A stretch of DNA of 26,772 nucleotides, from positions 1 to 26,772 of the forward strand of contig JAWBON010000012.1 of NCBI GenBank assembly GCA_038826135.1, written 5' to 3'. The translations under genes were made by a program, and so were the position numbers. Positions 796 to 19,689 of the stretch are shown piece after piece. Each line of letters opens with the position of its first letter. The first letter of the stretch is position 1. The DNA comes from Candidatus Odinarchaeota archaeon. GTDB lineage: Archaea; Asgardarchaeota; Odinarchaeia; Odinarchaeales; Odinarchaeaceae. The notes beneath the pieces were generated by a model. That model was given only the letters and a program-made list of their open reading frames with translations. It searched no databases and was not told the origin of the DNA.

Positions 796-1216
796 CCCAT
801 CTTACTTTATCTTTGATATTAATCCATAAATTTAGTAGGCAGAGTGGACGGAGCGAGCTCATTATTTCACATTTAAAATTAATCTGTGTTGCATGGTTTA
901 AGGTCTACATCTATAATATATTGTTTATTTTCTCCTAGAGAAATCTAGCGATATGTTTATTAATATCTATGTTAGTTAACGTTAAACTGGATGATGCTTA
1001 TCCCACTGATTGAAGATGGAGCTTATTTAAAGTGAAAACAGGTAGTTTCAGAAAAATAGTATATGGGTTTAGAGAAATAAAATCTCTTTTTAACCCCTAT
1101 AGGATTTTAACTTATTTCTTTCCAGTAATAAATCATAGAAGATTTTGCCAGTTTTATTTTAATTTTAACCTTCCTATTTTAGCGGATTTAAAATTTAAAG
1201 TTGAGAAGTGGAGGCT

Positions 1217-3151
1217 ATGAAAAAAGAATTAGAGGTTAAACCGTCTAAACCTTTAAAAAATGGGAAAAAACCTGTGAGAGTTTTAGGCCCGATAGATGAT
1301 TTAGCGAAATATGTCAGACCCGACTGGTGGAAGAACCTGTTCACCTCCCTGTATCTTAAGACGGATGCGGATGTTGTTGATGATCAGGGTATTACAGGCC
1401 GGGAAGTGGACTTGTTCACCGAGATGCTTACACTTCAACCTGAAGATAAGATTCTAGACTTATGCTGCGGACACGGGAGACACTCGCTTGAATTAGCGCG
1501 GCGCGGGTTTAAATATGTAGAGGGGCTCGACCGCTCTTCATATCTTATACAAAAAGCCAGGTCCACAGCGAAAAAAGAGAATCTGACTGTTAAATTCAGG
1601 GAGGGTGATGCTAGGAAGCTTCCTTATCCTGCGGACAGCTTCGACGCTGTTATGATCTTAGGGAACAGTTTCGGATATTTTGAAACTGTTGAAGATGATA
1701 TGAAAGTTTTAAGAGAGGTTTTCAGAGTATTGAAACCTTGGGGTAAACTACTTATAGATGTAGCTGACGGCGAATATGTGAAGAAGAATTTTCAACCTCG
1801 CTCATGGGAGTGGATAGATAAGAAGCACTATGTTTGCAGGGAGAGGAGTCTCTCAGTTGACGAGCAGCGTTTAATCTGCAGAGAGGTTGTAGCCCACGTA
1901 AACAAAGGGGTTTTAGCAGACCAATTCTACGCTGAAAGACTTTACACGAAGGATAATTTAACTAAGTTTCTAACAGCCGCCGGGTTCACAGACCTGGTTT
2001 TTCAAGGGGAGATAGCTACAGATTCTAAGAGAAAACAGGATCTTGGAATGATGGAGCAGAGAATAGTTTTAACAGCTTTAGTGAAGAAAGAGTGGAGCCC
2101 TGTAAGAAGAAAGCTTAAAGCTGAGGTTAAAAACATAGTTGTTATCTTAGGGGATCCTACTAAAAGAGACCCCGTGAAACCAGCTACAGTCTTCGATGAT
2201 GATGATATTTATACTATAGATCAGATGAAAGACGCTCTCAGAGAGCTGCAAGGATACAATTACACGTATCTTAATAATCATGACACACTTATCAGCGACC
2301 TTGTGAAGTTGAAGGATAAGATAGACTTAGTTTTAAACCTGTGTGATGAAGGATATTTTAATAATCCGCGTAAAGAACTCCACGTACCAGCCATTCTTGA
2401 AATACTGGGTATACCTTACACTGGAGCCGGCCCCCAGTGTTTAGCAATCTGCTATGATAAGTCGCTTGTAAGAGGCGTTGCCAGAGAGATGGGGATACCT
2501 GTACCTGAAGCCGTGTTTATTAAACCTGAAGATAAAACATTTGAAATCAACTTTGACTTTCCAGTTATCGTGAAACCGAATTTCGGTGACTCAAGCTTCG
2601 GAATCACCCAGAAAAGCGTAGCCTATAACCGGGAGGAGTTTATAGCCGCGATATCCGAGATAAGAGACAGATTCGGATACGATAAACATATTCTTGTTGA
2701 AGAGTTTCTGCCAGGGAAAGACTTAAGTGTAGGGATAATAGGAAATCCACCGGACTATGTGGTTTTACCTATAACAGAGGAAGATTACAGTACCATACCT
2801 GAAGGATTGCCTAAAATATGCGGTTATGAAGCTAAATGGTTACCTGAAACTCCTTACTGGAATATTAAAACAATCGTAGCAGACCTGCCAACAGACACAT
2901 ATAATATAATAGTGGAGTGGTGTGTTAAACTCTTTCAGAGATTAGAATGCAGAGACTACGCTAGATTTGATTGGAGAATGGATGAAAACGGAGTGCCAAA
3001 GCTTTTAGAAGTTAACCCGAATCCAGGATGGTGCTGGGATGGTCATCTCGCTAAAATGGCAAAGTTTGCAGGCATATCATACTCTATGATGCTAGGAGCC
3101 ATCTTAGAAGCTGCAGAGAAACGGTTAAACATACATAAAGAAGAGCATTAA
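1217..3151 (+). CDS. Fusion of class I SAM-dependent methyltransferase (N-term) and D-Ala-D-Ala-ligase-like ATP-grasp domain (C-term)
   Basis: Methyltransferase motif I ILDLCCGHGRH, plus GLDRS and FREGDARKLP. ATP-grasp motifs GIPYTGAG, CYDK, VIVKPNFGDSSFG, LVEEFLPG, YARFDWR and LLEVNPNPG. ATG 1217 follows GGAGG; alternative GTG 1208. Confidence 0.85.
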   Translation: MKKELEVKPSKPLKNGKKPVRVLGPIDDLAKYVRPDWWKNLFTSLYLKTDADVVDDQGITGREVDLFTEMLTLQPEDKILDLCCGHGRHSLELARRGFKYVEGLDRSSYLIQKARSTAKKENLTVKFREGDARKLPYPADSFDAVMILGNSFGYFETVEDDMKVLREVFRVLKPWGKLLIDVADGEYVKKNFQPRSWEWIDKKHYVCRERSLSVDEQRLICREVVAHVNKGVLADQFYAERLYTKDNLTKFLTAAGFTDLVFQGEIATDSKRKQDLGMMEQRIVLTALVKKEWSPVRRKLKAEVKNIVVILGDPTKRDPVKPATVFDDDDIYTIDQMKDALRELQGYNYTYLNNHDTLISDLVKLKDKIDLVLNLCDEGYFNNPRKELHVPAILEILGIPYTGAGPQCLAICYDKSLVRGVAREMGIPVPEAVFIKPEDKTFEINFDFPVIVKPNFGDSSFGITQKSVAYNREEFIAAISEIRDRFGYDKHILVEEFLPGKDLSVGIIGNPPDYVVLPITEEDYSTIPEGLPKICGYEAKWLPETPYWNIKTIVADLPTDTYNIIVEWCVKLFQRLECRDYARFDWRMDENGVPKLLEVNPNPGWCWDGHLAKMAKFAGISYSMMLGAILEAAEKRLNIHKEEH

Positions 3152-11490: not shown

Positions 11491-11937
11491 CTAAGGACTT
11501 GTAGCTATGATTTTCTTAGTGTCTAACAGTTTAATATCATTAACTGTAATATCCAGTACACCTTTAACGTTTCTTTTAACATCCCTGATCATCATTTCCT
11601 GCCAAGTGGGATTTTTCAAATTTTTATAATCTGTAGAGCGAAAAACCAGATTCACGTTAACTATACATTGAGGTTTCTCCTCTAAACCAGGTTCCATGTT
11701 AACAAGCTCTTTTACCACCGGTTTCTCGACGGAGACCAACCACTGAGCTAATTTCTCATTACCACGCCGGGAGACTTTAATAGTATTCAAAACCGTTAAC
11801 ACATCTAAAACATCATAGATTCTTCTCTTTTTCTCGATAGGTAACTTGATTTTCCGGGCTATTTCAACCGCTGATAAAGGTTTACCTGACTCTCGAAGGC
11901 AGTCTACAATCTTTTTTGTAAGCTCTACAAGTTTCAA
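11491..11937 (-). CDS. Winged-helix DNA-binding protein with E2F/DP-like RRIYD recognition helix
   Basis: LVELTKKIVDCLRES...LSAVEIARKI...KKRRIYDVLDVL...QWL. TTG start after GAGGT. Confidence 0.7.
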   Translation of the reverse strand: MKLVELTKKIVDCLRESGKPLSAVEIARKIKLPIEKKRRIYDVLDVLTVLNTIKVSRRGNEKLAQWLVSVEKPVVKELVNMEPGLEEKPQCIVNVNLVFRSTDYKNLKNPTWQEMMIRDVKRNVKGVLDITVNDIKLLDTKKIIATSP

Positions 11938-12027: not shown

Positions 12028-12555
12028 TCAAGGTGTGGAATAAGGCTTTTTAAATATCATTTTCGAAATAGTGGTGAAAGATTCGTTAACACCTAAACCT
12101 GTTTTAGCGCTTGTCTCCAAGTATGATGAGCTCAGTTTTTCAGCGAATCCCTTAGCATCCAGTGTTTTAACCACCCGCATAGATGTTAAGTCAAGCTTGT
12201 TTCCTATAATGATGAGCGGGATTTTACCTTTAATATACTCGTTAAGTTCTTTCACCCAGTTATCTAAATTAGTAAAAGTGGATAACCGGGTTAGATCAAA
12301 TACTAGGATGGCCCCCGAGGCCCCCCTGTAGAAAACATTTCTAAAAAATCTGAATTTATCCTGGCCGGCTATATCCCATAGAGAGAGTTTAATTTCAAAC
12401 CCATCAACATAAACTGTTTTACTCATAATATCCACGCCGATTGTGGCCTTATAGTCTACTTCGAATCTTTCTTGAACGAATTTATTAATAAGCGAGGTTT
12501 TACCTACAGCAGGATCCCCTAATAACAGGATCTTAAATCTGTAACTGGGTTTCAC
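12028..12555 (-). CDS. Rab-like small GTPase (Ras superfamily)
   Basis: G1 GDPAVGKTS, switch I YKATIGVD, G3 WDIAGQ, FYRGA, LVFDLT, G4 GNKLD, G5 ETSAK. No C-terminal Cys. GTG start after GGAGGT. Confidence 0.93.
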   Translation of the reverse strand: MKPSYRFKILLLGDPAVGKTSLINKFVQERFEVDYKATIGVDIMSKTVYVDGFEIKLSLWDIAGQDKFRFFRNVFYRGASGAILVFDLTRLSTFTNLDNWVKELNEYIKGKIPLIIIGNKLDLTSMRVVKTLDAKGFAEKLSSSYLETSAKTGLGVNESFTTISKMIFKKPYSTP

Positions 12556-14593: not shown

Positions 14594-16168
14594 CTACACC
14601 CTTTCTTTCAAAATTTTAATAATGGTTTTTTGAGGTAAAACCCATTTTTTAAACTCTTCTTTATATAAATAGCTATTCTCAAATGTGAAGGGTAATCCTT
14701 GAGAAAGATAATTTTGCTTCAGCCTGTAGAAGAGTTTGAAATCCACGTCCTCACCAATATCTTCAAGATAGTTTTTAAGCGTGTAGTCAACCATTACAAG
14801 ACTACCTTTAGGGAGAAATAGGTAAGCGTTAAGAGCCTTCTCCCCGCTTAAACTCCTAGCTCTGAAGATATATACACTAGGTAAATCTAGTAATCCTGAT
14901 TCAACAGAATTTATAATTTTCTCCGAACCTTTAATTTTTATAAAAACATGCTCGTCCAGACCGATATTCTCTACAAATAGTGTAGGTTTAACAACCCCTG
15001 CTGATATTAATCGAGTTTTTCTCTCGAAAACACTAGTAGCGGATATACCAAGCTTTAAAGATATGTCGCGAATAGGCTGCTTGAAATCATAACTTAATTG
15101 GTTTAGTAATTCTAAATCAACTAAGTCGTAACCTACACTGTTTAAGTTAAAACCTTCACGAGCACTAGCCTCCTCTACATCACCTGAAACGTATAATGTA
15201 TGCCATGATTCATCTAAAACTTTCCTCACCCATAAAGCCCAGTTCTCCCAGTTAAAAGCCCATTTTTTATTTACCGTATCATAAGAGTTTCTTAAGGAAA
15301 GAGAATGCCGGCCAGGCCCTTCGTCAATCCAGTACTCAGCGTTTCTTATATAGGGTTTTAGTAGTTCTATAAAATGTACTAAGAATTCATCAGGAATATT
15401 AAAGGAATAAAGATAAATAGTGGAGCCACCGCGGAGTTCTTGAACTATTCTCATATAGGGGAGTTTTGGAATAACCTGATCAGTCATAACTGTTAAAATT
15501 TTTAAACCGAGTTTTTCAAGGTTAATCCGTCCGTTAAAAAATACGCACCCCCTTTTCTGAAGCGATATCAGACGATTTGAAAAAGTGTTTCTTGACAGAC
15601 CAAGCCTGTTGGCAGCATCGATATTTGAAATCAACGGGTCCTTGCTAAGTAGCTCTATTATTTTAATATCAGTCGTATCAAGTTCTACGGTGTGAGTTAA
15701 AAGAGAGTGGAGTCTAATATAATGGCAGGCATCCCGTAAATCTAAAATATAATTATATTTTTCTAATTTTTTCAAGTTATCTAAAATTGTTGGAAGAAAC
15801 AGCCCACTGGTCATCTTATCGTAAATTATAAGATCATAAACAGCTCGATAACAAGAGCCGTCTTCAAATTCAAATGTTATTTTTGACGCGTCTTCTAAAT
15901 CAGAGTTTTTCTTATCAGCCCACTCTTTTAATAATTTCGCTCTTAAAGGAGGGTCGGATAATTTATAGAGTAGTAAGTATTCAAGATCCTCTTTTATAGG
16001 TTCAGGGATTATGTCTGATAAGTATCCTCGGAATATTTGCCTAGCAAATTGAACCTGTTCATCGTTAAATATTAACGGGGGTTCTAAAAATTCACTCCAA
16101 ACATACTTTTTATTAAGATACTCCTTAATTTTGTTTTCAATAAGAGACTGGTCTTCGAGTTGAATCAT
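14594..16168 (-). CDS. Tandem Lrp/AsnC-type transcriptional regulator with N-terminal extension
   Basis: Two AsnC-type HTH units: LDTTDIKIIELLSKD...ANRLGLSRNTFSNRLISLQKRG and DLVDLELLNQLSYD...ISLKLGISATSVFERKTRLISAGVVKP. Confidence 0.75.
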   Translation of the reverse strand: MIQLEDQSLIENKIKEYLNKKYVWSEFLEPPLIFNDEQVQFARQIFRGYLSDIIPEPIKEDLEYLLLYKLSDPPLRAKLLKEWADKKNSDLEDASKITFEFEDGSCYRAVYDLIIYDKMTSGLFLPTILDNLKKLEKYNYILDLRDACHYIRLHSLLTHTVELDTTDIKIIELLSKDPLISNIDAANRLGLSRNTFSNRLISLQKRGCVFFNGRINLEKLGLKILTVMTDQVIPKLPYMRIVQELRGGSTIYLYSFNIPDEFLVHFIELLKPYIRNAEYWIDEGPGRHSLSLRNSYDTVNKKWAFNWENWALWVRKVLDESWHTLYVSGDVEEASAREGFNLNSVGYDLVDLELLNQLSYDFKQPIRDISLKLGISATSVFERKTRLISAGVVKPTLFVENIGLDEHVFIKIKGSEKIINSVESGLLDLPSVYIFRARSLSGEKALNAYLFLPKGSLVMVDYTLKNYLEDIGEDVDFKLFYRLKQNYLSQGLPFTFENSYLYKEEFKKWVLPQKTIIKILKERV

Positions 16169-16450
16169 AGTAACCCCTGAAAAAAAACACAGTATTTATT
16201 ATAAAAATTGTGCACTTGTTCGATATAAAGTTTGTGATAGACAACGTAATATATGATAAATAAAGAGATTAAAATAATGTTTTTACCAAATAAAACGATA
16301 AAAAATTGATTAAGATTAAAAAACGTTTTTAAAAACCCTAGAAAAGATTTATAGCTAACCTAAAACTTATTTTATAATAATTTTTTAACACGACAGTAGA
16401 GTTTAAAAGGGAATAAATAAAGGCTATATCTGCAAGAAGAGGGGATAAAA

Positions 16451-16762
16451 ATGAAAACTTTACTTGTAGCACATGATATAAAGGAAAAAATCATGAATAT
16501 CGCGCAAAGGACAAACGAGTTTATAACAAAACAGTCGCCGGAGGGGACACTACTAGTATATGAGGAGTTAAATAATATATGGAAGTACTTGAACAGGCTT
16601 CAATCCTTTGAAACAAAGTATATAATAGAGATCATAATCAACATGTCAATAGCCTTCGAAGCGTATTTTGCAGGGGCAATAACAAAAGAGGAGCTTATAA
16701 CAAATATTTTAAAAAACAAAATCGTCAGCGAGTTGATAAACCATTTAAAAACCATAAATTAG
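16451..16762 (+). CDS. Small helical hypothetical protein (paralog of 17058..17354)
   Basis: GAGGGG SD before ATG; first of three closely spaced co-directional ORFs. Confidence 0.7.
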   Translation: MKTLLVAHDIKEKIMNIAQRTNEFITKQSPEGTLLVYEELNNIWKYLNRLQSFETKYIIEIIINMSIAFEAYFAGAITKEELITNILKNKIVSELINHLKTIN

Positions 16763-16775
16763 AGGGGTTTTGGAG

Positions 16776-17012
16776 ATGGGGGAGAAGCAGCTTAGTTATC
16801 TGTTTAACTTACTTAAAGGATTACAGAGCGGCGATATCCTAATGGATGGACAAGGTCATGAACGCTTTAAATTGGTGTTTAAGGAAGCGTATTATAATAT
16901 AGACACTATTAAAATATTTTTAAATCTTCTTGAAAAAGTAACAGATGATCAGATTAAAGCATATATGAGGGAGATTGATAACAGTAAATGTGAAGTTTAT
17001 ATACACCTTTAA
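16776..17012 (+). CDS. Small hypothetical protein
   Basis: GAGGGG/GGAG SD; ATG 16776 or TTG 16770; starts 7-13 nt after the previous stop. Confidence 0.65.
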   Translation: MGEKQLSYLFNLLKGLQSGDILMDGQGHERFKLVFKEAYYNIDTIKIFLNLLEKVTDDQIKAYMREIDNSKCEVYIHL

Positions 17013-17057
17013 TTTACTATATTATATAGTAGTACTACGAAAATTGTGGTGTAATAA

Positions 17058-17354
17058 TTGAGCATAGACTTAGAGCTCAAACAGATAAGTTCAATGTTGG
17101 GGATAGGAGACGAGGAAGAATTCAGAGTCGACGAGCTTCAAAACCACATAGACAGGGTATGGCAGATAATAAATAACAAACAAAGAGATATCAACGATAT
17201 AATCCTGAACCATTTATGCAATCTTGTAACAAAGCTAGCTATAATTGTAGACGCTTATAGAGCTAAAATGGTAAGATTCGAAAGTTTAAAGGTGTATGTT
17301 GAAAAAGAGGGTTTAGCAGCCCGCCTTCTAGAATTATCAAAAAATATAAGTTAA
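17058..17354 (+). CDS. Small helical hypothetical protein (paralog of 16451..16762)
   Basis: TTG start after GTGGTG; aligns by eye with the ORF at 16451. Confidence 0.7.
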   Translation: MSIDLELKQISSMLGIGDEEEFRVDELQNHIDRVWQIINNKQRDINDIILNHLCNLVTKLAIIVDAYRAKMVRFESLKVYVEKEGLAARLLELSKNIS

Positions 17355-17375: not shown

Positions 17376-17981
17376 TTATCTGGCTGCAGCTGCAACTCTT
17401 TCACGCTCTTCCTTTCGGCTCACAGCGTAGCTTTTAGGATTATTCTCAGCCGCGGCTATCAGCTCATCAGCCACACATTCTTCAATAGTGGAGGAGTTCT
17501 TTTTACTAGCTTTTAAAGCACCTTGAGCTAGAAACCGTAAAGCGATGTCAACACGTCTCTGAGGGGACATGTCAACAGATTGATGGTATACCACACCACC
17601 ATAACTTATCCGCGTGGTATCCTCACGAGGAGCAGAATTAATAACAGCGTCTATTAAAACTTGAATGGGATTCTTCCCCGTTTTCAAATTGATTATTTCA
17701 AAAGCGTTTTTAACAATGGTGATCGCGGTCTGCTTCTTACCTGTAGCCACACACATTTTAATATGCTTTCCACCTTTCCCCTTAGCTAAACCAACAGAGG
17801 TAAGCCTGTTCACAAATCGTTCAACTATAGGAACCTCTGATTTACCGAATCTTCTATGCTCGTGTCTACCACCAGTATGGGGTAGCACAACAGGCTTCAA
17901 GGATATGTAACGTTGAAGACCTAAATCATTCACTTGAAGATTATCATAATCCCATTTATTAAATAATTTTATATCGCTCAC
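17376..17981 (-). CDS. rps7: 30S ribosomal protein S7 (uS7), archaeal type
   Basis: IKLFNKW, LPHTGGRH, PIVERFVNRL, NPIQVLIDAVINSAPRED, SPQRRVDIALR and EERERVAAAAR. Likely start GTG 17981. Confidence 0.97.
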   Translation of the reverse strand: MSDIKLFNKWDYDNLQVNDLGLQRYISLKPVVLPHTGGRHEHRRFGKSEVPIVERFVNRLTSVGLAKGKGGKHIKMCVATGKKQTAITIVKNAFEIINLKTGKNPIQVLIDAVINSAPREDTTRISYGGVVYHQSVDMSPQRRVDIALRFLAQGALKASKKNSSTIEECVADELIAAAENNPKSYAVSRKEERERVAAAAR

Positions 17982-18140
17982 AGCAACCACTTCTAAACAC
18001 AAGACTGTGAAGTAAAGCCTTACCTATAATGATAACTATATTATTTAAATCTTTTTCCACGCGTGTACTTACAGAAGATACTGTTAACATTTTATTCCGC
18101 TAAAATACTATTAAATATCATCTTCAACATACTTTCATAT

Positions 18141-18734
18141 ATGCCAGATAAACTAGGTGTTGAAGCTAAATATTTTTTTAATAAAGAGAAAGCCGGAGCA
18201 TACGAACATAATAAATCAATAATTAAAGCACAGATAAAAATGGCTGAACGATTAAGCGAACTAATCAAACTTGGAGTAAACCAGCTTCTACTCGAGTTAG
18301 GCTGCGGAACAGGCATTGCCAGTGTACACTTCAAAGAGAAAGCGGGCAGAGCCGTAGGCGTTGACTTATCGATTGAAATGTTAAACTACGCTAACAATAA
18401 AAACATCGATATTGTAAACGCTGATTTTAAAAACATACCTTTCAGAGATCGGGTTTTCAACGCGGTCACCTCCATCTCCTCTCTTCAATGGATTTGGGGT
18501 TCAACACTAGAGCAGGTAATAAGTAAATATACAATGGTTATTAAAGAAATTAAAAGAGTTATTCAAAAGGATGGTGTGGTTGGAGTACAATTCTATCCGC
18601 AGAGTATGAGGGAATTTGATTTTGTAACCGGATTATTCAAGAAAAACGGGTTTGAAGGAGCCATTATAATAGACGCCCCGGACACACCTAGAAAAACCAA
18701 AAAATACCTTATTTTAAGCTTGCGAAGTAGATAA
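18141..18734 (+). CDS. Bud23/WBSCR22-like SAM-dependent (rRNA guanine-N7) methyltransferase
   Basis: Q-x-KMAER...LLELGCGTG, GVDLS, IPFR...FNAVTSISSLQW, VQFYP, GF-x-G-x-IID-x-P...KKYLIL. The order and content match the Bud23 catalytic domain as I recall it. Likely start ATG 18141. Confidence 0.75.
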   Translation: MPDKLGVEAKYFFNKEKAGAYEHNKSIIKAQIKMAERLSELIKLGVNQLLLELGCGTGIASVHFKEKAGRAVGVDLSIEMLNYANNKNIDIVNADFKNIPFRDRVFNAVTSISSLQWIWGSTLEQVISKYTMVIKEIKRVIQKDGVVGVQFYPQSMREFDFVTGLFKKNGFEGAIIIDAPDTPRKTKKYLILSLRSR

Positions 18735-18736
18735 AA

Positions 18737-19264
18737 TCAACCTATGAAGAGCTGATTAATAACCCCCTTTCTATTCAGTAAACAGTAGGCGAATACTAAC
18801 ACAGTCATAACTGTGAAAACAATATATAAGAAGTTAGACGCTAGCACCAGATTATTAAATATAATAATACTGTTAAAAGACCCGGCGTAGATAGGCCAAA
18901 ACAACGGGTTATAAGGGTGTTGCATAGCATCTAAAAAAACATGAGATAATACTCCTATAACTGCGGAAATGGTTAAAATCTTATAAGATTTAACAGGAAA
19001 TGACGGATCAACTAAAAGCTTTTTAAAAAAAATTTTATAAAGAGGGTAGAATAGGAGGATACTTAAAGGAACACCTAAAAATATAGAGCCTATTAAACTG
19101 TGAAGAATTAAGCGGTCGATTAAACCGTTAGTTATAAAAAATATAAAAGGTATCTCAATATCTGATATCATAGAGGATACGATGAGCACAGGTAAACTGA
19201 GATTTCTCTTAGAAATATAATAGGTTATAAACGCTATAGGGTAATGTAACGGTGTAAGTGGCAA
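18737..19264 (-). CDS. DUF4184-like membrane-bound metal-dependent hydrolase family protein
   Basis: MPLTPLH, SMISDIE, HSLIG, SHVFLD and PLFWP, with several TM helices. Confidence 0.7.
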   Translation of the reverse strand: MPLTPLHYPIAFITYYISKRNLSLPVLIVSSMISDIEIPFIFFITNGLIDRLILHSLIGSIFLGVPLSILLFYPLYKIFFKKLLVDPSFPVKSYKILTISAVIGVLSHVFLDAMQHPYNPLFWPIYAGSFNSIIIFNNLVLASNFLYIVFTVMTVLVFAYCLLNRKGVINQLFIG

Positions 19265-19344: not shown

Positions 19345-19689
19345 ATGTATATTAGAAAAGTTAAGGATGTTAAAGCACAATTAGTTAATCAAGAAGGTGT
19401 CAAAGACACTTATATCCAAATCCTTATAAATAGAGTGAACGGTGGCGCTGAGAATTTCGCGATGAGACGCTTCACAGTTAAACCAGGCGGTGAGATTGGC
19501 CTCCACAGCCATAACTGGGAGCATGAGATCTTCATATTACAGGGAAAAGGCATATTAAAAAACAGTCATAAAACCTACAAGGTTGAAGAAAACACAGTTA
19601 TTTATATACCACCGAACGAGGAGCATTATTATAAGAACACGGGTAAAGAAGACCTGATATTTCTATGCATGATACCAATAACAGACTAA
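19345..19689 (+). CDS. Cupin domain protein (TM1459-like)
   Basis: NFAMRRF, HSHNWEHE and PPNEEH...N cupin metal motifs. Confidence 0.9.
   Translation: MYIRKVKDVKAQLVNQEGVKDTYIQILINRVNGGAENFAMRRFTVKPGGEIGLHSHNWEHEIFILQGKGILKNSHKTYKVEENTVIYIPPNEEHYYKNTGKEDLIFLCMIPITD

Follow-up and report, generated by a model that had tools for sequence, protein, structure and literature searches.

The gene at positions 18141 to 18734 of a 26,772-nucleotide stretch of DNA from a Candidatus Odinarchaeota archaeon (the whole stretch is called the window below) is, as judged from family, predicted fold and pocket residues, a stand-alone and tail-less archaeal orthologue of Bud23. From sequence and modelled structure, its product is most likely a Trm112-activated m7G methyltransferase, the probable target being the G1338 equivalent of 16S rRNA on the immature 30S subunit. 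The features of the locus are as follows.

17376..17981, minus strand: rps7 (uS7); longest open reading frame from 18002, probable start GTG 17981
18042..18058, minus strand: BRE+TATA-like element (GGAAAAAGA TTTAAATA) of archaeal promoter consensus; putative rps7 promoter
18109..18117, plus strand: TATA-like box, 24-32 nt before the ATG of the methyltransferase gene; putative leaderless promoter
18141..18734, plus strand: Bud23/WBSCR22-family class I SAM methyltransferase gene; 197 aa, no WBS_methylT tail
Key residues of the Odin Bud23-like protein: E52, G56, D75, D95, S113, Q116, W117, Y152, K187
18737..19264, minus strand: YdjM/DUF4184 membrane protein gene, tail-to-tail; stable neighbour in Odin-type contigs
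19345..19689, plus strand: cupin gene; direct divergent rps7 neighbour in sister family f2

The Odin gene belongs to the Bud23 family

The open reading frame starts at ATG 18141, and its N-terminus matches those of three homologues. A sequence-only reading of this DNA had assigned the protein to the Bud23/WBSCR22 family from a series of motifs, all of which were found (Y21, Q31-x-KM, LGCGTG, IPFR, SISSLQW, QFYP, GFEG..IID.P and KKYLIL). When the Odin protein was used as a single-sequence phmmer query against the PDB, the top match was human BUD23 (E 2.3e-21, residues 9-192), and yeast Bud23 was matched up to residue 193 (E 2.3e-19). Bud23 was ahead of other matches by 12-13 orders of magnitude; the distance between 2.3e-21 and the 8e-8 of the next methyltransferase indicates that the similarity is not due to chance. 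The Odin genome (93% complete) holds a single Bud23-like copy, scoring 216 bits against 51 for its next methyltransferase. All near-full-length members examined reached at least 155 bits in the family profile, and the best other methyltransferase reached 83. The O. yellowstonii orthologue is 65% identical, and gene order around the locus in Ca. Odinarchaeum yellowstonii is the same as in the window, which makes the organism probably a relative of Odinarchaeum.

Small-molecule methyltransferases of the BioC/UbiE type were ruled out by NCBIfam cut-offs, phmmer and the fold search. With only partial coverage, the Odin protein scored 57 against a cut-off of 185 bits for the BioC model, and 44 against 158 for the MenG/UbiE model. 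BioC and UbiE-MenG share generic Methyltransf_11/25 SAM motifs with it, and automatic annotators sometimes use those names, but they lack the SISxxQW, QFYP and KKY motifs.

The absence of the eukaryotic basic C-terminal tail had been proposed as well, and PF12589 was indeed not found in the Odin protein. The tail is present in tailed eukaryotic matches and absent from two rows within the eukaryotic clade; the yeast Bud23 crystal construct also lacks it. Codon-position differences among intact Odin-type copies rank third > first > second, and the sequences indicate that these copies are under purifying selection.

Fold, pocket residues and phylogeny

An AlphaFold model of the Odin protein (pLDDT 95), built from an alignment that included eukaryotic rows, was matched by Foldseek to yeast 4qtu (TM 0.87/0.90, rmsd 2.0 Å, E 9e-20 versus 8e-12 for the next) and by VIA to human 7wtw (Z 26.2 versus 21.4 for the next match). 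The Atlas's own model gave the same ranking, with eukaryotic 18S m7G methyltransferases best (TM 0.92). The reference system is Bud23/BUD23-WBSCR22 with Trm112/TRMT112, the 18S rRNA (guanine1575/1639-N7)-methyltransferase (KEGG K19306; PDB 4qtu, 4qtt, 6g4w and 7wtw). The Odin protein can be aligned with it along the entire catalytic domain (residues 9-193) at about 28% identity and a TM of 0.85-0.88, and resembles it in SAM and guanine-pocket residues, the N-terminal P-D/E motif, the Y..Q helix and a predicted Trm112 beta-zipper. It differs in having no PF12589 tail, an E for D in motif I and non-basic equivalents of K21/R27; its gene is dispensable, no HA2-domain helicase was found in three carrier genomes, and it is known here from sequence and models.

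We take yeast Bud23 G57 (human G63) to be a SAM-site position and yeast W122 to be a guanine-pocket residue; their Odin counterparts are G56 and W117. The key residues D53, D77, D99, S118, Q121, Y159 and K194 of yeast Bud23 (PMC2896518 Table 3) correspond to E52, D75, D95, S113, Q116, Y152 and K187. Of the eight published positions that bind SAM or guanine, the Odin protein retains every one, E52 being a D-to-E change. No variation at Q116, W117 or Q150 was seen among 17 eukaryotic rows and 62 further canonical archaeal ones. The eukaryotic basic residues K21 and R27 of yeast are A20 and S26 in the Odin protein. This residue mapping bears out the claim of an intact Bud23-type cofactor and guanine pocket.

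In a C20 tree, a branch with 87/94 support (not starred) split the eukaryotic and archaeal members from the 12 nearest other methyltransferases, the rows called eukaryotic being assigned by tail and clade rather than by source names, with PF12589 confirmed for four. The Odin protein groups with Bud23 and not with small-molecule methyltransferases, and sequence, fold, profile gap and tree agree in placing it in the Bud23/WBSCR22 family. The nearest outgroup is an Asgard family of methyltransferases of about 185 aa with an RY..IQ..KY motif, scoring 50-83 bits (L066-L069; G000 C76:1984-2529).

Within the family, the Odin clade is without a supported sister and the backbone of the tree is open. 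Loki A copies nest with Micrarchaeota/Iainarchaeota rows (99/97). Monophyly of the canonical Asgard copies was not rejected (AU p 0.084); a grouping of Odin with eukaryotes was not rejected either (AU p 0.48) and had no positive support. Bootstrap trees gave an Aenigmarchaeota group as the Odin sister in 37% and P0019 in 35%, most trees having a non-Asgard or unnamed sister. As far as these sequences go, transfer and repeated loss cannot be told apart as histories of the family.

A Trm112 gene is present in the Odin genome

The trm112 gene that was looked for in the Odin genome was found (168 aa; contig C11, L001:1483-1989), and homologues occur in further Odin and Loki genomes. A complex of the Odin Bud23-like protein with Trm112 was predicted with the canonical interface and an ipSAE of 0.93, a score that solved homologues may drive, versus 0.00 for the best of three controls. 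Contacts agreed by at least 98% between prediction runs, partner pLDDT was at least 90, and the closest predicted contacts with Trm112 involve residues 92-101, in the beta-3 region. The complex-score mark was reached by 58 of 80 solved pairs versus 2 of 110 mismatched pairs. PMC5372719 describes this region for Trm112 complexes. Because Bud23-Trm112 has already been solved and the score may reflect those structures, the predicted complex speaks for likeness, not for binding. It cannot name the substrate either, since archaeal Trm112 partners many methyltransferases (PMC6144793).

One such enzyme is Haloferax volcanii Hvo_0019 in complex with Trm112 (PDB 6f5z; PMC6144793). It is a class I methyltransferase, as is the Odin protein, for which Trm112 is the predicted partner. 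Among Trm112 partners other than Bud23, 6f5z comes closest in fold to the Odin protein (Z 20.6). Hvo_0019 is nevertheless not Bud23-like, at 15-17% identity and a TM of about 0.7. Asgard Trm112 proteins are long and carry a large central insertion (168 aa in Odin, about 205-220 aa in Loki), and the Loki ones (L105-L109) were missed by the Pfam genome search.

Target guanine and proposed mechanism

The GGAAU motif is present as GGAATCCCTAGTAA in two congeneric 16S genes, the 16S being unassembled in the Odin genome itself, and also in a non-carrier. Its second G is, as we assume, the equivalent of E. coli G1338 and yeast G1575. The presence of this target G in congeneric genomes, to which the sequence-only reading had attached its proposal, is uninformative because that small-subunit G is universal (PMC7005279). 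The Odinarchaeum 16S genes (L057, L058) measure 1541-1546 nt versus 1495-1498 in Loki and G002, implying insertions.

In the mechanism that we favor, the Odin Bud23-like protein would pair with Trm112 via a beta-3 zipper and bind SAM, and the pair would dock on the head of the immature 30S subunit. The G1338 equivalent (second G of GGAAU, on the P/E-site ridge) would then enter the S113/Q116/W117/Y152 pocket and be methylated at N7, the predicted site being the second G of GGAAUCCCUAGUAA. The protein would have a dispensable, accessory role in fine-tuning, with neither the tail nor the processome function of its eukaryotic counterparts. Its gene tends to stay next to genes for head proteins of the small subunit or for initiation, an arrangement that probably serves co-expression with the 30S subunit. 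Yeast Bud23 cannot dock on the mature subunit (PMC5372719). In the relevant passages of PMC5372719 and PMC6144793, no m7G at the Bud23 position is reported among the archaeal 16S analysed so far, and no carrier lineage is named.

The rps7 arrangement is local

The neighboring gene was identified as uS7 by NCBIfam NF003106 (286.7 bits, cut-off 225, for the frame 17376-18002). Its start is likely GTG 17981, behind a conserved SD-like GAAGTG, and the gap between the starts of rps7 and the Bud23-like gene is 159 nt. The sequence-only reading had described a shared divergent promoter region of about 160 nt: the size stands, and the sharing does not, since the pattern of the gap suggests a separate promoter for each gene, the two placed back to back. 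The BRE+TATA element at 18058-18042 is kept in four Odinarchaeum genomes and would serve rps7, because it survives in the one whose methyltransferase is dead. A sigma-70 promoter scan of bacterial type, irrelevant for archaea, stayed at chance level.

Three Odinarchaeum species keep the head-to-head order with rps7, as does a single relative at 57% identity. In sister family f2, rps7 and the cupin gene are immediate divergent neighbors; another Odin-type contig reads cupin-YdjM-rps7 without the methyltransferase, and a 702-kb contig reads cupin-YdjM-methyltransferase with rps7 gone. The cupin gene marks the site of methyltransferase gain or loss. In the congeneric genome G302 (93% complete), a Bud23-like pseudogene lies between intact rps7 and YdjM (L192:~880-1250), with a deleted start, frameshifts, three stops and a 41-nt insertion. 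The enzyme is dispensable, as this pseudogene indicates, and G302 is a natural knockout at the same site in Odinarchaeum. No Bud23-like gene was adjacent to rps7 among the Loki or DPANN loci examined; the nearest DPANN case is rps7 three genes away in one Woesearchaeota genome. Coupling to uS7, which had been offered as support for a ribosomal role, is thus local to the genus and one relative and not a family trait. Across Asgard it is not conserved, being absent in Lokiarchaeia and broken in Odin-type contigs.

YdjM is probably functionally unlinked to the Bud23-like gene. YdjM-like neighbors in one Aenigmarchaeota clade hinted at a methyltransferase and YdjM cassette from that lineage, a notion left unsupported because the nearest named non-Odin relative of YdjM is Bathyarchaeia-type. 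The rps7 gene is orphaned from rps12, which is found on contig C37 (G000 contig C37:9433-10916) on the opposite strand to nusA and rpoA2. EF2 matches occur on three contigs of the Odin genome (C99, C39 and C32).

Other parts of the window were also noted. Positions 1208-3151 (plus strand) encode a 647-aa fusion of a class I methyltransferase and a D-Ala-D-Ala ligase-type ATP-grasp domain. A winged-helix protein lies next to a Ras-family GTPase (11491-11937 and 12028-12555, both minus strand); the former scores 32.7 against a Pfam E2F/DP cut-off of 25.7, and the GTPase is called as two reading frames in O. yellowstonii (L002:1923-2461). Positions 14594-17354 hold a 524-aa double Lrp/AsnC-type regulator and three small unknown divergent reading frames (103, 80 and 98 aa), a set conserved in Odin-type genomes.

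Distribution in Archaea

A census with an 85-row profile (E<=1e-30, 8 candidates scored per genome) found matches in 149 of 400 Asgard genomes. Carriers were three of four genomes in the genus Odinarchaeum, 2/3 in f17, 1/1 in f20, 13/14 in f21 (Promethearchaeaceae), 125/135 in f22, 4/4 in f23 and one genome of f32, with none in the other Asgard families of the census. Five non-carriers that were scored exhaustively peaked at 83 bits. Intact copies, with identities as low as 57%, are carried by three Odinarchaeum species and by two more Odin-type contigs.

In Lokiarchaeia the family is near-universal, and most genomes have two paralogues, a canonical A (QW, QFYP) and a divergent B (NF, EFYP). 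In paralogue B, Q-W is replaced by N-F and Q150 by E (L037:5700-7039, L039:4777-6112 and f22 loci). The two stand in tandem between eS25 and uS10 in Promethearchaeaceae; genome G138 is Loki-B35. A Loki-type paralogue B with uS10 was also seen in MAGs labelled Hodarchaeota, Thorarchaeota or Hermodarchaeota at NCBI (L152, L162, L164, L170, L186). Those labels were not trusted: L152 (G404), which was looked at more closely, shares its match coordinates with G174, a genome of Lokiarchaeia family f22.

Sampled DPANN genomes, which were incomplete MAGs with centres excluded, gave carrier rates of 4-7% (Aenigmarchaeota 7/120, Nanoarchaeia/Woesearchaeota 7/200, Micrarchaeota 10/150, Iainarchaeota 5/80). 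These carriers rule out an Asgard-specific signature protein. TACK and Euryarchaeota were covered by representative search only. Long members were P0009 (412 aa), P0024 (382 aa) and L222 (about 420 aa); in P0009 two stretches match, which suggests that a pair of Bud23-like domains has been fused. A canonical Bud23-like gene on a 930-bp contig of an Actinomycetota MAG (L143) is probably on a mis-binned archaeal contig.

Small-subunit head genes recur as neighbors

The proteins uS7, eS25, uS10 and eS28 all belong to the small-subunit head. The gene for eS25 is head-to-head with the canonical Loki A copy in 32 of 35 loci, and that for uS10 lies within 5 kb of paralogue B in 27 of 29 copies. Directly upstream are L7Ae-eS28 in five Nanoarchaeia/Woesearchaeota-type genomes and aIF2-alpha in five Aenigmarchaeota-type genomes. 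In yeast, Rps28 sits next to the Bud23 site, and a bud23 deletion is suppressed by a mutation of rps28A (PMC7758049). An adjacent ribosomal gene was seen in 0/30 control methyltransferase loci, as judged by eye. Counted as independent neighborhoods, about 3 of 31 have an adjacent head-protein gene, with a binomial P of 0.004-0.07 depending on the assumed base rate; the lineage-counted comparison with controls gave a Fisher p of 0.12. These recurring neighbors are suggestive of a role, and of a substrate, on the 30S subunit. The variety of head-gene neighbors is a better argument than the rps7 link, and the eS25 link, persisting over three families, is the stronger part of the context signal.

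Alternative explanations

The protein may instead be a Bud23-family enzyme for another substrate, such as a small purine, a protein of the ribosome or of initiation, or a different guanine in rRNA or tRNA. The pocket can change within the family, as the N-F and E replacements of Loki B illustrate, and that of Bud23 resembles a xanthosine methyltransferase (PMC5372719); accessory enzymes are commonly distributed in patches and lost locally. The Odin copy, however, retains the eukaryotic pocket exactly, and the recurring small-subunit neighbors indicate 30S, making a different substrate unlikely. A mainly non-catalytic 30S head assembly factor, with methylation incidental or absent, would fit the co-location with head-protein genes and has a precedent in catalytically dead Bud23, which complements in yeast and human (PMC7758049, PMC4472018). 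We find such a role hard to credit, given the missing tail, the strictly kept SAM residues, the loss tolerated by a congeneric species and the outcome of the helicase search: no Dhr1-type HA2_N domain was found in three carrier genomes, with positive controls. RIBIOP_C and Brix searches, which addressed Bms1 and Imp4, were run without a positive control.

A horizontally acquired gene, placed beside rps7 by accident and now of little function in Odinarchaeum, could explain why the sister family and an intermediate contig lack it at this site, why G302 has a pseudogene, and why most bootstrap trees give a non-Asgard or unnamed sister. We hold this to be very improbable, since the gene is intact in three species and two Odin-type contigs under apparent purifying selection and monophyly of the canonical Asgard copies was not rejected; transfer and current function are, moreover, compatible. 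Methylation of the G1338 equivalent with Trm112 is the reading that we retain. To call it a eukaryote-like step of small-subunit maturation, as the sequence-only reading did, is overstated: the gene is a pseudogene in a congener and missing in the sister family, its product is tail-less, no Dhr1-type helicase domain was found in three carriers, and there are DPANN carriers too.

Relation to earlier work and significance

According to PMC5372719 and PMC6144793, archaea lack both Bud23 and the corresponding m7G. Table S10 of Birikmen et al. 2021 (PMC8481954) places BUD23 in the Asgard repertoire after an abundance filter; it was dropped by the domain-architecture filter, and the unfiltered listing has it for Eury and TACK as well. 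BUD23 does not appear in the main text of that paper, and the listing comes without phylogeny, pocket analysis, gene context or experiment (PMC8481954). Ebersberger 2014 gave tail-less Bud23 orthologue candidates in all taxa, and JGI labels some archaeal members 18S rRNA (guanine1575-N7)-methyltransferase. In our literature search, 'Bud23' and 'Asgard' never stood together in the main text of a paper. By sequence and model, then, the Odin gene is a tail-less archaeal variant of a known family. The gain is evolutionary and not one of new chemistry, because the enzyme family is known.

We tentatively entertain, at slightly less than even confidence, that the m7G1575 mark of 18S rRNA arose in archaea. 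A minimal Bud23-Trm112 would have methylated the P/E-site guanine of the 30S head there already, its gene retained next to head-protein genes (uS7, eS25, uS10, eS28) in independent lineages; having spread or survived in patches in Asgard and DPANN archaea, it would have gained the basic tail and the processome role only afterwards. The analysis yields a prediction for one nucleotide, open to testing in cultures of P. syntrophicum and Ca. L. ossiferum. If the Odin protein is an orthologue, its tail-less form would split an ancient methylation from a later eukaryotic assembly role, which bears on why yeast and human can do without Bud23 catalysis although it has been conserved.
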